A stretch of 64,000 bases of DNA from Candidatus Saccharimonadales bacterium (GCA_049521895.1 JBEKOJ010000001.1:418717-482716), one strand, 5' to 3'; positions 7,786 through 55,478 are shown, counted from the stretch's first letter. Program-made: numbers and translations. The notes: a model not told the origin generated them from the sequence alone.

Positions 7786-7809
7786 TTAACAGAGGTTATT
7801 ATATCATTT

Positions 7810-12384: not shown

Positions 12385-12406
12385 GATGTCGAGATAGTCC
12401 TAAATC

Positions 12407-12425
12407 TGATATAATCACCTCTGTT
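12407..12425 (+). promoter_or_regulatory. tRNA promoter: extended -10 TGATATAAT followed by conserved CACCTCTGTT
   Basis: TATAAT lies at 12410-12415. The same TGnTATAAT + ACCYCTGTT module recurs at 15150, 16641 and 44756 (minus strand). Confidence 0.6.
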
Positions 12426-12500: not shown

Positions 12501-12652
12501 ACTTTGACTAAAGTCAAAGCATTTAACAATTACACGTTTACCATTTACCAATTATTTTTCATCTAACATTTGTCGAGTCTGGAAAATGACAGTTGGTAAA
12601 TTAATGTAAATTGTGAATTGAAAAATGTAAAATGTCCGCCAGAGGCGGACTG

Positions 12653-12729
12653 TGCCCCGGTAGCTCAGCTGGATAGAGCAGGAGACTTCTAAGCTCAAGG
12701 CCGCAGGTTCGAATCCTGCCCGGGGTACC
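12653..12729 (+). tRNA. tRNA-Arg (anticodon TCT)
   Basis: Cloverleaf by eye. Loop is CTTCTAA and T-arm is GCAGG-TTCGAAT-CCTGC, with CCA encoded. The anticodon stem has only three Watson-Crick pairs (G27/A43 and A31/G39 are mismatched). Confidence 0.8.
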
Positions 12730-14852: not shown

Positions 14853-15152
14853 ATGTCCGTAGCTGAAGGGCTCAAGCCAAATTGGTGGGAAGTGCAAGCT
14901 TTGGGTATGGTGGAGCCAATCGAGATTGTGCTCGGTGCCATGGTATGTGATGGATGCAGGCAGGAGATAAGAGCACATAGGCTAAACCCCGAGTTTTTTG
15001 AGCTCGGACCGCCCTTGGAGTCTACGAGAATACTATGCGGCGCTAGCGAAAAAAAGGTTGCTCCGCTCCCGCATGGAACGAGTATTACCATTTATGATTT
15101 TTCAGTGCAACGTAAGCCCGACGAAGCTGTGGTGCCTCTAGGCGTACTCTGA
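14853..15152 (+). CDS. hypothetical protein
   Basis: 99-aa ORF in an otherwise empty interval with no recognisable motif. Its stop overlaps the tRNA-His promoter. Confidence 0.3.
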   Translation: MSVAEGLKPNWWEVQALGMVEPIEIVLGAMVCDGCRQEIRAHRLNPEFFELGPPLESTRILCGASEKKVAPLPHGTSITIYDFSVQRKPDEAVVPLGVL

Positions 15153-15170
15153 TATAATTACCTCTGTTCT
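15150..15170 (+). promoter_or_regulatory. tRNA promoter module TGATATAAT + TACCTCTGTT
   Basis: TATAAT lies at 15153-15158. It has the same architecture as the other tRNA promoters in the window. Confidence 0.6.
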
Positions 15171-15299
15171 TTCAGATTATTTTTCAAATTTTCAAAGCGG
15201 CGGTCTACTAACCGTTTGAAAAATTGAGAGGAGGAGCATAGCGCTAAGCCGAAGCTTTTGCGAAAAAGCAAAACGAGGCCGGCGCGCAAGCTCCGACGA
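15165..15299 (+). ncRNA. L-type structured leader, copy 1 (precedes tRNA-His)
   Basis: Contains an A/T-rich 12-bp hairpin (15185-15226), a purine block GAGAGGAGG and a closing helix GGAGC/GCTCC. It ends in CTCCGACGA directly at the tRNA 5' end. Homologous copies lie at 44612, 47933 and 55360. Confidence 0.55.
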
Positions 15300-15377
15300 G
15301 GCGAATGTAGCTCAGTTGGTTAGAGCGTCGGGTTGTGGTCCCGAAGGTCGTGGGTTCGAGACCCATCATTCGCCCCA
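15300..15377 (+). tRNA. tRNA-His (anticodon GTG) with encoded G-1
   Basis: Cloverleaf by eye. Loop is TTGTGGT, there is an extra 5' G opposite the discriminator C, and CCA is encoded. Confidence 0.9.
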
Positions 15378-16581: not shown

Positions 16582-16640
16582 TATTGTAGCTTATTTGAAA
16601 AGCGGTACACTCGGGGCGGGTAGTTCATCTATCTGTTTTC

Positions 16641-16660
16641 TGCTATAATTACCCCTGTTG
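16641..16660 (+). promoter_or_regulatory. tRNA promoter module TGCTATAAT + TACCCCTGTT
   Basis: TATAAT lies at 16644-16649. Confidence 0.6.
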
Positions 16661-16674
16661 CACTTTCTGTTTAA

Positions 16675-16762
16675 GGGGAAAGGTAGTAGCGCCGATTCGG
16701 CTTTAGCCGAAGACGGATTCATTCCGGCAGGCGCGTTGAAGGAAAACCGTAGGTTGTCTTTC
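16675..16762 (+). ncRNA. R-type structured element, copy 1 (leader of tRNA-Pro CGG)
   Basis: About 88 nt homologous to 41097-41186. The two copies share identical ends (GGAAAGGTAG... and ...GGAAAACCGTAGGTTGTCTT). Two internal hairpins keep their pairing through compensatory changes. Confidence 0.55.
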
Positions 16763-16773
16763 AAAAATGGTTA

Positions 16774-44534: not shown

Positions 44535-44611
44535 TGGTAGCAGCGACAGGAATCGAACCTGTGACCTCGGGCTTATGAGTCCCACGCTCTAACCAACTGA
44601 GCTACGCTGCC
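44535..44611 (-). tRNA. tRNA with anticodon CAT (elongator Met or Ile2/lysidine substrate)
   Basis: Cloverleaf by eye with loop CTCATAA and CCA encoded. There is an A31/G39 mismatch at the base of the anticodon stem. tilS lies about 0.5 kb away. Confidence 0.8.
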
Positions 44612-44741
44612 TCGTCAGAGTCGACGTGCCGGCCTCCGTACTTTTACTATTTAGAAAAAGTACTTGCGGCCTCAGGTCGTCTCTCCCTCTTCAATTTCAC
44701 AAGCAAGACAACTACTTGTCTTGTGAAATTGCTAAAGAACA
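44612..44741 (-). ncRNA. L-type structured leader, copy 3 (precedes the CAT tRNA)
   Basis: On the minus strand it runs: promoter TGCTATAAT (TATAAT 44753-44748) + ACCCCTGTT, a 12-bp A/T hairpin (44692-44731), the purine block AAGAGGGAGAG, then CTCTGACGA abutting the tRNA. Confidence 0.55.
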
Positions 44742-45107
44742 GGGGTTATTATAGCACAAAACAGATTAGCCCGGGGCTATTCTTCGTTTATCACTTCGTC
44801 TATCGCCAGAAGTTGCGGGTCTTCTGTCGGCAGCAGCACGTATGTTAGCGCGTCAGCCATTTTTTACCTCGTTTTTGTATTTTTTTGATCTGCTATTTAT
44901 TATCATAAGGCTTTTGTTTTGCCTGTCAACAACTTTTAAGCTTGTTTTTATGCTAACTTCGTGGTTAACTATCGCCGTTAGGATCTTATCTGTTCTTGGT
45001 CAAGAGAGAACTAGTGAACGGCCGCAAGGAGATTGTCCGAGTTCAACCGTAGCCAGACGAGTAAGGGGTCGTTCCTAAGTTAGTTAAAGAAATCAAGGAT
45101 ACACTCA

Positions 45108-47857: not shown

Positions 47858-47932
47858 TGGTAGCGGGGAGAGGACTCGAACCTCTGACCTCGTGGTTATG
47901 AGCCACGCGAGCTGCCACTGCTCCACCCCGCG
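47858..47932 (-). tRNA. initiator tRNA-fMet (anticodon CAT)
   Basis: 5' CGCGGGGTGGAGCAG as in bacterial initiators. Position 1:72 is a C/U mismatch. CCA is encoded. Confidence 0.85.
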
Positions 47933-48085
47933 TCGTTGGAGCAAGCCACCAGCTTGCAACGACGAACAGCTAAACTTACGTTTATTGTTCGTGTCTTCAG
48001 CTTTATGCTGCTCCTCCTCTCAAATTTTCAAACCGTGATCAGACCCCCGCTTTGAAAATTTGTGGAAGACCAAGTACATATTCTA
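47933..48085 (-). ncRNA. L-type structured leader, copy 2 (precedes tRNA-fMet)
   Basis: On the minus strand it has a perfect 12-bp A/T hairpin (48021-48062), the purine block GAGAGGAGGAGCA and a closing helix GGAGCA/TGCTCC. It ends in CTCCAACGA at the tRNA 5' end. A -10-like TATAAC lies at 48095-48090. Confidence 0.55.
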
Positions 48086-48104
48086 ATCTGTTATAAGGTG
48101 TTTG

Positions 48105-48569
48105 TCAATCGCTGAAGAGTTTGCGTCCGAGCAAAAAATCCCGCCAATCCTCTAAGTTTTTGGCTACTCCTGTCGGGCCATTTGTTGTGTTGGCATTATT
48201 CGCCGTAGTGGGGGAGACGGCCAAAGATGGATCAATATATTTCATAGCCACACTCTTTGGAATCAGCAAGACCGTTTCGCCGGGGGCGGCTAAGCCAAAA
48301 TTCTGCCGGGCGGCCAGTTCCAGATACTGGTTAGTCTGCAGATATTCATTCTGTAAGGACATATTGGCATTCTGCAAGCCAAGTACACTGTTCTGCTGCC
48401 TCAGGGTAGAGATTTGCTTTTGCAACTCGTAGTTATTCTGAACAGTTTTTACACCGCTCCAGGTAATAGCCAACACGATGACGGCAAAAATATAAAGGCC
48501 GACGTTACGAATATCGGTTAGCTGCCTAATGCGAGCACTGTTCCACTTGGTTTTATTTTTTTTAAACAT
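48105..48569 (-). CDS. septum formation initiator (FtsB/DivIC-like)
   Basis: 154 aa with an N-terminal TM helix followed by a Leu/Gln-rich coiled coil. Confidence 0.6.
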   Translation of the reverse strand: MFKKNKTKWNSARIRQLTDIRNVGLYIFAVIVLAITWSGVKTVQNNYELQKQISTLRQQNSVLGLQNANMSLQNEYLQTNQYLELAARQNFGLAAPGETVLLIPKSVAMKYIDPSLAVSPTTANNANTTNGPTGVAKNLEDWRDFLLGRKLFSD

Positions 48570-55359: not shown

Positions 55360-55478
55360 TCGTCGGAATCGAGGCACCGGCTTCCGTGAGCTTGTAGACC
55401 GTGCTCACTTTCAGCCTCGGCTCGCTTCCTCCTCTCAATTTCGCAAACGGTCGCTAGCGCCCCGATTCGCAAAATTGC
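55360..55478 (-). ncRNA. L-type structured element, copy 4 (orphan; lies in the comEC upstream region, same strand)
   Basis: On the minus strand it has an 11-bp hairpin with two G-U pairs (55437-55476), GAGAGGAGGAAGC and a closing helix. It ends in ATTCCGACGA, but no tRNA follows. The comEC start is 88 nt downstream. Confidence 0.5.

Follow-up and report, generated by a model that had tools for sequence, protein, structure and literature searches.

A structured RNA module without an Rfam match adjoins the start of tRNA and tmRNA genes in Saccharibacteria and other bacteria

Here, we describe a discrete structured RNA module of about 115 nt, composed of two hairpins, which matches no Rfam 15 family and which lies directly against the start of tRNA genes in a Saccharibacteria genome. 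The same module was found in more than 100 loci from Saccharibacteria, other Patescibacteria, Clostridia and Bacteroidales, where it abuts tRNA genes of different isotypes and, in two genomes, the tmRNA gene. Near-identical copies sit on different tRNAs in different genomes, while orthologous tRNAs lack it. We tentatively regard it as an exchangeable, probably selfish or hitch-hiking, leader cassette whose release by RNase P is inferred and whose function is not established.

Bacterial tRNA leaders are treated as short, disposable and unstructured. An earlier note on a 64,000-nt stretch of Candidatus Saccharimonadales DNA (GCA_049521895.1 JBEKOJ010000001.1:418717-482716; hereafter the window) had described four homologous copies of a structured leader, termed the L-type element, three of them fused to the 5' ends of tRNA genes and one an orphan. 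Our analysis confirmed this observation, all four copies being homologous and present at the stated coordinates. The interpretation as a leader family fused to tRNA 5' ends was supported only in part, since the module is a real, covarying RNA and the transcribed 5' leader of three tRNAs in this genome, whereas a tRNA-specific role was not supported.

Four copies in the window and their predicted structure

In the window, ARAGORN and Rfam find 12 tRNAs, three of which are preceded by homologous segments of about 115-130 nt. These are tRNA-His at 15301-15377 (+), a C1·U72 initiator-type tRNA-Met at 47858-47932 (-), and a CAT tRNA at 44535-44611 (-) which has G1·U72 and lies upstream of a tilS-type gene. 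The fourth copy is followed by no tRNA. The individual parts are as follows.

15150..15158 (+): extended -10 promoter TGATATAAT of the His unit, followed by ACCTCTGTTCTTT (15160-15172), a generic tRNA-promoter feature that resembles boxA; not part of the module.
15185..15226 (+): copy 1 (His), hairpin P1, closed by C15185-G15226.
15224..15235 (+): copy 1, 5' box UUGAGAGGAGGA.
15233..15294 (+): copy 1, long irregular hairpin P2-P5 (GGAGC...GCUCC).
15292..15299 (+): copy 1, 3' box UCCGACGA; A15299 is nt -2 relative to G1 and lies immediately before G-1 (15300) of tRNA-His (15300/15301-15377).
48080..48108 (-): promoter TTGACA-17-TAGAAT of the fMet unit (11 of 12 matches).
47933..48062 (-): copy 2 (fMet), with P1 at 48062-48021, the 5' box at 48023-48012, the long P2-P5 hairpin following, and the 3' box UCCAACGA at 47940-47933; it abuts tRNA-fMet +1 (47932-47858), and the terminator is at 47849-47830.
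44748..44756 (-): extended -10 promoter TGCTATAAT of the CAT unit, followed by AACCCCTGTTCTTTAG.
44612..44731 (-): copy 3 (CAT tRNA, probably tRNA-Ile2, next to tilS), with P1 at 44731-44692, the variant 5' box UUGAAGAGGGAGAG at 44694-44681 and the 3' box CUCUGACGA at 44620-44612; the variant pair AGA/UCU compensates for the canonical GGA/UCC, and the copy abuts the tRNA (44611-44535).
55360..55477 (-): copy 4 (orphan), with P1 at 55477-55436, the 5' box at 55438-55427 and the 3' box UCCGACGA at 55367-55360; no tRNA follows, the comEC-like ORF (55272-53830) starts 87 nt downstream, and no sigma-70 promoter was found.

Each copy folds more stably than its dinucleotide shuffles, with z-scores from -3.5 to -6.2. 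A covariance model, R1, was built from 26 copies from other genomes plus the His, CAT and orphan copies of the window. Applied to the whole window with filters off, it finds exactly four hits, at 55360-55474 (-) with 96 bits, 15188-15299 (+) with 86 bits, 44612-44728 (-) with 76 bits and 47933-48059 (-) with 44.7 bits (E = 6.5e-10). The last of these, the fMet copy, was not in the seed, and the next best hit has E = 0.22. A mismatch-tolerant scan for the two boxes found no further copy. The observation is real and not due to chance.

P1 is a 5' hairpin of free sequence with A/U-rich ends, closed by the C of CAAWWUU and the G of UUG. It is followed by one unpaired A and a long irregular hairpin, P2-P5, which contains a purine-rich internal loop (GAA(A)/GGA). 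The purine block and the 3' tail are the two strands of one conserved basal helix, 5'-GAGGAG(GA)/(UC)CGACGN-3', in which G-C and A-U pairs are interrupted by two tandem G·A/A·G steps and which runs to the very last nucleotide. Natural variants prove this helix: GGA/UCC becomes GAA/UUC, AGA/UCU (as in the CAT copy of the window), GCG/CGC or CGG/CCG, and the last pair, which contains nt -1, is G·A in most copies but G-C, G·U or A-U in others. Apart from UUGAGAGGAGGA...UCCGACGA, no position is conserved.

Covariation of the whole fold is strong. Alignment of all subtypes together by MAFFT followed by RNAalifold recovered only the basal helix, and the structure was therefore set by hand on a Saccharibacteria subset. 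On a plain MAFFT alignment of 29 Saccharibacteria copies, 82.6% of cells are paired against 68% in shuffles (0 of 500 shuffles reach it), with slid controls giving 34-52%. On 107 model-aligned copies, an alignment which is fitted to the model and so leans towards the structure, 91.4% are paired against 60.8% in shuffles, slid controls give 32-51%, and 25 of 26 pairs show double changes.

Several points of the earlier description hold, namely the A/U-rich first hairpin that keeps its pairing while its sequence changes, the purine block, the closing helix, and the 3' end YUCYRACGA abutting tRNA +1, or G-1 for tRNA-His. The G·U pairs in P1 occur in the tRNA-sense orientation in the Saccharibacteria set (UG 11 and GU 6 at two pairs). 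Three points had to be corrected. First, TGnTATAAT with ACCYCTGTT, listed in the note as the start of the element, is not part of it but is the tRNA promoter of this organism. Second, the "multi-hairpin core" is one long irregular hairpin. Third, the 3' tail RACGA is not single-stranded but pairs with GAGGA of the purine block.

With regard to transcription, the fMet unit is complete and consists of promoter, module, tRNA and terminator. The His and CAT units start with TGnTATAAT-N-ACCYCTGTTCTTT, a string which also runs directly into the nearly leaderless tRNA-Gly(tcc) and tRNA-Arg(ccg) and which precedes a different leader on tRNA-Pro(cgg). In the three units promoter, leader, tRNA and terminator are contiguous with no room for another promoter, and because the module abuts the tRNA, the tRNA can only be transcribed through it. 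The three window copies thus qualify as tRNA 5' leaders, which the orphan, the inverted copies and the Clostridia copies described below do not. Across loci, 65% of same-strand abutting copies have a -10 box within 50 nt upstream of P1, against 28% in shuffles. Within the module, TTGAGA could serve as a -35 box, but no -10 box lies at the right spacing, and no start codon lies at a suitable distance after the SD-like block to indicate a small ORF.

Distribution and genomic context

An exact-pattern scan of one genome per species returned at least 119 loci (numbered here with the prefix L). About 100 of the 120 matches are true members by structure and by R1. The loci up to L082, on which the taxonomic placement rests, belong to Saccharibacteria/Saccharimonadia, to Woese-, Curtiss-, Jackson-, Peri- and Parcubacteria, to Oscillospiraceae, Ruminococcaceae, Monoglobus, Acutalibacteraceae and a cultured Caproiciproducens, and to Bacteroidales and Paludibacteraceae. 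Caproiciproducens galactitolivorans BS-1 carries a copy (L031). The spread over three phyla is patchy, and the family is not confined to CPR. A search of viral contigs gave one probable chance hit, so that the module is not phage-borne. The absence of further copies or of covariation had been named in advance as grounds for rejecting the element; instead, more than 100 further copies with covariation were found, and no match in Rfam.

The Rfam comparison used 4227 models, including T-box, ribozymes, HEARO/IS605-orfB, 6S, SRP and Y RNA. At gathering threshold the window gave only its 12 tRNAs, the His copy at E <= 10 gave only the tRNA and a 9-bit chance hit, and 24 loci with copies gave only tRNA, tmRNA and, elsewhere, pemK. 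Literature searches of open-access papers and bioRxiv, including searches with the box sequences themselves, found no description of the module, the sequence hits being sequencing adapters.

Of the 107 R1 hits, 49 abut a same-strand tRNA, with 0 nt between in 39, 1 nt in 4, 2 nt in 4 and 3 nt in 2. Spacers of 1-3 nt occur outside Saccharibacteria. Ten copies abut the 3' end of an opposite-strand tRNA, 13 have a tRNA within 200 nt, and for 35 no tRNA was called. Two of these 35 abut tmRNA with 0 nt between. The tRNAs cover 18 isotypes with no pattern, and for tRNA-His the junction falls before G-1. The junctions with same-strand tRNAs and tmRNA are all RNase P cleavage sites; cleavage of the module/tRNA junction was not assayed and is inferred from its exact position at +1, at G-1 for tRNA-His and at tmRNA +1.

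Most copies were retrieved with an exact-match pattern, so that conservation of the boxes is overstated in that set. To remove this bias, a metagenome scan was anchored on the promoter string instead. Of 49 distinct promoter contexts, 14 are followed by an L-type module, and all 13 of those with readable flank abut a tRNA at the mature 5' end. In this smaller set, on which alone the conservation of the boxes is confirmed, the helix core GGAG/CGAC(G) is still almost invariant, while everything around it covaries.

The module is a discrete cassette and not simply a tRNA-specific leader. Modules 97%, 96% and 91% identical sit on Lys(ctt) against Arg(ccg), Leu(tag) against Arg(ccg) (both inverted), and Arg(tct) against the window's His. 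In each case homology starts at the base of P1 and stops at GACGA. Near-identical copies on different tRNAs in different genomes could partly reflect several paralogous copies per genome rather than movement; whole genomes were not scanned, and copy numbers per genome and true rates of gain and loss were not determined. Locus L044 is syntenic with the window at tRNA-Gly(tcc)-tRNA-Arg(tct) and carries the module in the spacer, where the window has an unrelated 153-nt spacer. tRNA-His is found with the module (6 contexts), leaderless (8 nt from the promoter string), or with other inserts. At the orthologous tRNA-fMet locus, the window and L048 share a similar P1 but have quite different P2-P5. 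L170 is a deletion derivative in which P1 is followed by the fused boxes and the tRNA.

In the ten inverted cases the GACGA end faces the 3' end of a tRNA on the other strand, 1-3 nt past the discriminator. They include all six copies of one subtype, four of which come from a Curtissbacteria MAG (L043), a Woesebacteria MAG (L068, two copies) and an unclassified bacterium MAG (L042). The inverted copies show no enrichment for a promoter of their own (22% against 22% in shuffles), and there the element is at most an antisense 3' trailer. Their P1 has G·U pairs only when read on the tRNA strand, where it looks like the tRNA's terminator, whereas P1 in the window is A/U-rich with no U tract and was not called by the terminator scan, so that these observations do not settle whether P1 is an intrinsic terminator. 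In several Clostridia genomes, the module is the 3' domain of a non-coding element of about 280 nt, which is present in multiple copies between unrelated housekeeping genes and is not linked to tRNA.

No linked protein partner was detected. The neighbours are housekeeping genes, and all-against-all clustering of 1869 ORFs from about 100 loci found no recurring family, the top cluster being a spurious ORF through the Clostridia repeat. The leader of tRNA-Pro(cgg) was considered as a divergent member but gives no R1 hit and belongs to a second family, the "P-type" leader, also found in L153 and L175.

Some modules are followed by 14-36 nt of a tRNA terminus, then 60-170 nt, then the full tRNA. 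These partial tRNA copies were considered as guides or as scars of retro-insertion, and both ideas were rejected. The reverse cases have the layout [full tRNA]-insert-[3' repeat] of ordinary integrase att duplications, and MobC/NikA or RhuM genes lie next to two orphan modules. The forward layout also occurs without any L-type module (L132, L159), where it involves a related insert that starts ACAGCCYTGAGC after ...GCTCAGTTGG. No partial copy carries a CCA that the full gene lacks.

Interpretation and comparison with known systems

What the analysis demonstrates is a covarying RNA fold, its position as a transcribed leader in this genome, the nucleotide-exact junction with RNase P sites, its exchange between tRNAs, its occurrence in both orientations and outside tRNA contexts, and the absence of any known family or linked gene. 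The remainder of our preferred view is inference and is held with less than even confidence. In this view, RNase P matures the tRNA, or the tmRNA in other genomes, by cutting at the last nucleotide of the module, and the same cut would free the module as a compact RNA whose 5' end is guarded by P1 and whose 3' end is buried in the G·A helix. No transcript data exist, accumulation of the released RNA is likewise an inference, and whether the released RNA has an activity of its own is not established. The module would not be tied to any tRNA but would behave as an exchangeable, probably selfish or hitch-hiking cassette that has repeatedly been gained, lost and swapped at the ends of tRNA genes. 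Those ends would be a safe harbour, because the tRNA-processing enzymes of the host trim the insert away, RNase P when it lies 5' in sense and 3'-end processing when it lies 3' in antisense, in which position P1 would double as the tRNA's terminator. The conserved basal helix would be the part under selection and most likely the recognition platform for whatever maintains the cassette, be it the machinery that moves it, or RNase P or another universal host factor acting at the junction.

Some findings speak against this view. No mobility signature was found, that is, no terminal inverted repeats, no target duplication and no linked transposase or reverse transcriptase, and how the cassette moves is not established. 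The association is stable in some lineages, with tRNA-Trp in four Bacteroidales, tmRNA in two Saccharibacteria, and tRNA-fMet in the window and L048, which fits a host function as well. Furthermore, a helix reaching nt -1 should hinder RNase P rather than help it.

A possible but less likely alternative is a host-beneficial cis-acting leader that tunes maturation or stability of the precursor. Its basal G·A helix could present or mask the RNase P site, it could protect the 5' end, or, together with the boxA-like GUUCUUU, it could shield the untranslated transcript from Rho, and its spread would then reflect recruitment rather than selfishness. This is supported by the exact junction in 39 of 49 copies, by the location of the only conserved sequence at the junction, and by the stable associations mentioned above. 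The other, unrelated structured tRNA leaders of Saccharibacteria, such as the P-type leader, suggest that long leaders are used, and the three window tRNAs that carry the module all have unusual acceptor ends, namely G-1, a C1·U72 mismatch and a G1·U72 wobble. On the other hand, orthologous tRNAs do without it, 18 isotypes carry it, some copies are inverted at tRNA 3' ends without a promoter, others are far from any tRNA, and the leader-less deletion derivative L170 is tolerated.

It is more doubtful that the released module is itself a trans-acting stable small RNA, for example a protein sponge or scaffold recognised through the G·A helix, which uses the tRNA only as a device for making its 3' end, as MALAT1 uses mascRNA. 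Both ends of the predicted product are base-paired, the strict 0-nt junction would give a defined 3' end, and in Clostridia the module is a domain of a longer, RNA-like element. However, each genome carries many copies with freely varying sequence outside one helix, the inverted copies lack a promoter, no partner gene co-occurs locally, and there are no expression data.

Three further readings appear very unlikely. A guide RNA scaffold in the manner of a TnpB omega RNA or a Cas12 crRNA would fit the sharp end of the conserved scaffold against variable sequence in either orientation and the partial tRNA copies, but no tnpB, iscB or cas gene lies nearby, the Rfam omega-RNA-type families do not match, the "guide" is normally a complete, functional, promoter-driven tRNA, and the partial copies have the other explanations given above. 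A self-cleaving ribozyme that cuts at its own 3' end and so makes tRNA 5' ends without RNase P would fit the exact junction and the conserved purine-rich non-Watson-Crick core at the cut site, but no known ribozyme class in Rfam matches, the core is a simple helix with few invariant unpaired bases, spacers of 1-3 nt occur, self-cleavage (not assayed here) would leave a 5'-OH on the tRNA, and most tRNAs of the same genome lack the module, so that RNase P is needed anyway. A DNA-level recombination or attachment site or single-strand DNA structure with an incidental RNA fold would fit the occurrence in both orientations with the same end facing the tRNA, the weak strand preference in the inverted copies and the islands with MobC/NikA or RhuM genes next to some copies, but five helices covary with G·U pairs on the tRNA-sense strand in the leader copies, the sense strand folds better than the antisense strand (p = 7e-5), and no integrase or transposase is linked.

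Among known systems, MALAT1/mascRNA and MEN-beta comprise, as is inferred here for the module, an upstream RNA that RNase P separates from a tRNA(-like) fold and whose new 3' end is immediately locked into structure. Those are eukaryotic long non-coding RNAs with a triple-helix end and a pseudo-tRNA, whereas here the partner is a real, essential bacterial tRNA or tmRNA, and the module is about 115 nt long, multi-copy, and has its 3' end in a tandem G·A helix. Spacer-derived small RNAs from bacterial tRNA precursors, such as the 3'ETS of leuZ in E. coli, likewise show that a by-product of tRNA processing may be a functional RNA, but they are lineage-specific, largely unstructured segments, while the module is a covarying family shared by three phyla and placed 5' of the tRNA. 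T-box leaders are structured, related to tRNA biology and abundant in Firmicutes, but they precede aminoacyl-tRNA synthetase and amino-acid genes, bind tRNA in trans and end in a terminator/antiterminator. The module precedes the tRNA itself, has no specifier or T-box sequence and does not match RF00230.

Small non-autonomous repeat elements (MITEs, REP/BIME, IS200/IS605-derived PATEs) share with the module the short, non-coding, structured and multi-copy nature, sharp homology boundaries at non-orthologous sites and a patchy distribution, and conserved sequence 5' and 3' of a hairpin foot pairs non-canonically, as at IS608 ends. However, the ends of the module, CAAWWUU... and ...UCCGACGA, are not inverted repeats, pairwise comparisons of the boundaries show no target duplication, there is no conserved target sequence, the insertion is at tRNA gene termini, and the long hairpin varies freely in sequence. 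TnpB/IscB omega RNAs and Cas12 crRNA scaffolds also have a conserved structured scaffold whose 3' end abuts locus-specific sequence, but here no nuclease gene is adjacent, and the downstream sequence is a whole functional tRNA transcribed from a promoter upstream of the scaffold. Mobile elements that use tRNA genes as safe harbours (Ty3, Dictyostelium TRE, tRNA-targeting integrases) are also placed where insertion is harmless, and integrase-type 3'-end duplications are seen next to some copies. Those are kilobase-scale coding elements placed near or in tRNA genes, while the module is a 115-nt non-coding RNA fold joined to the tRNA terminus to the nucleotide.

A more far-reaching reading, which we consider unlikely but not excluded, is that of a new class of genetic element, a non-coding, RNA-structured cassette that docks nucleotide-exactly onto the termini of tRNA and tmRNA genes across bacterial phyla and survives because the host's own tRNA-processing enzymes excise it from the transcript. 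It may spread through an RNA intermediate, in which the RNase P-made 3' end GACGA-OH is joined end-to-end to mature tRNA ends, for example by ligation or by reverse-transcriptase template jumping. This would explain the junctions at +1, at G-1 of tRNA-His, and at C74-A76 in the inverted copies.

In contrast to the usual picture of bacterial tRNA leaders, a single covarying RNA fold is shared by Patescibacteria, Clostridia and Bacteroidales and is joined to the RNase P site to the nucleotide. If it is a host device, it is an unrecognised layer of control over tRNA and tmRNA maturation in organisms with minimal genomes. If it is a hitch-hiker, it is a new strategy for a selfish element, which would use tRNA processing as its excision system and tRNA promoters as its expression system, and which would also mark tRNA gene ends as a dynamic insertion arena. 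Either way, it is a sizeable RNA family missing from Rfam, with a compact conserved motif, a tandem G·A helix, at the inferred cleavage site.

Promoters and acceptor ends of the tRNA genes in the window

The tRNA genes of this genome share a promoter of the form TGnTATAAT-N-ACCYCTGTT, which is found in the window at the following positions:
12406-12425
7786-7808
15150-15172
44741-44756
16640-16659
In tRNA-Gly(tcc) and tRNA-Arg(ccg), this promoter runs straight into nucleotide +1, so that these transcripts are nearly leaderless. In contrast, in units that carry a leader it continues as GTTCTTT(A/G), a sequence which resembles the boxA of rRNA operons.

All three tRNAs that carry the L-type module have atypical acceptor ends, including two with the following features:
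44535-44611, the CAT tRNA next to the tilS-type gene, with a G1·U72 wobble
47858-47932, the initiator-like tRNA, with a C1·U72 mismatch and only two G-C pairs at the bottom of the anticodon stem

Further leaders and inserts at tRNA genes

A different structured leader of about 114 nt (z = -2.9) precedes tRNA-Pro(cgg) at 16660-16773 (+) of the window and contains AGGGGAAAGGUAGUAGC ... GUUGAAGGAAAACCGUAGGUUGUCUUUCAA. Homologous leaders were found in front of tRNA-Met and tRNA-Pro(tgg) in two metagenome contigs (L153 and L175). These leaders represent a second family, likewise located on different tRNAs, which is not detected by the covariance model of the L-type module (R1).

The spacer between tRNA-Gly(tcc) and tRNA-Arg(tct) in the window (12501-12653) is 153 nt long and A/T-rich, and it contains short direct repeats (TTACCATTTACCAATTA...) as well as a GC hairpin just before tRNA-Arg. 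In L044, a locus from another genome, the syntenic spacer holds an L-type module instead.

In the loci L053, L132, and L159 (and also in L015, L055, L066, L111, and L156), a first partial copy of the tRNA 5′ end (14-36 nt) is followed by an insert of 60-150 nt with its own -10 box and then by the full tRNA. Inserts in three loci start with ACAGCCYTGAGC right after ...GCTCAGTTGG. This arrangement occurs with or without an L-type module and looks like a separate small element that invades tRNA genes. In addition, two unrelated contigs share a conserved two-hairpin module (CUUCUnnUGAAAACUnGUUUUCAAnnAUGAAGUU, then CGGGG...CCAAGUCC) between a degenerate tRNA copy and the full tRNA, which is tRNA-Lys in one contig and tRNA-Leu in the other:
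L052, 3520-3600
L057, 5330-5420

Occurrence and extent of the L-type module in other genomes

In Clostridia MAGs (L003, L028, L064, L082, L096, L100, L110, L113, and L116), a non-coding element of ~280 nt is present in several copies per genome between unrelated housekeeping genes. It consists of three upstream hairpins followed by the L-type module, then GGGCUUUGCCCC..ACCCCACC and a hairpin. UGGGGU upstream of the 5′ hairpin P1 could pair with ACCCCA downstream.

Orphan modules in Caproiciproducens galactitolivorans BS-1 and in a Paludibacteraceae MAG are directly followed by a NikA/MobC-type mobilisation gene and a RhuM-family gene:
L031, 6973-7413 (C. galactitolivorans BS-1)
L077, 5379-6431 (Paludibacteraceae MAG)
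This suggests that islands integrated between the module and its former tRNA.

A shorter relative was observed in a further locus (L124, 953-1062), where a P1 similar to that of the L-type module is followed by GAGAGAAGCCC...GGGCGAUAAG directly before a tRNA. R1 does not call it at this site, and the family probably extends beyond what the model detects.
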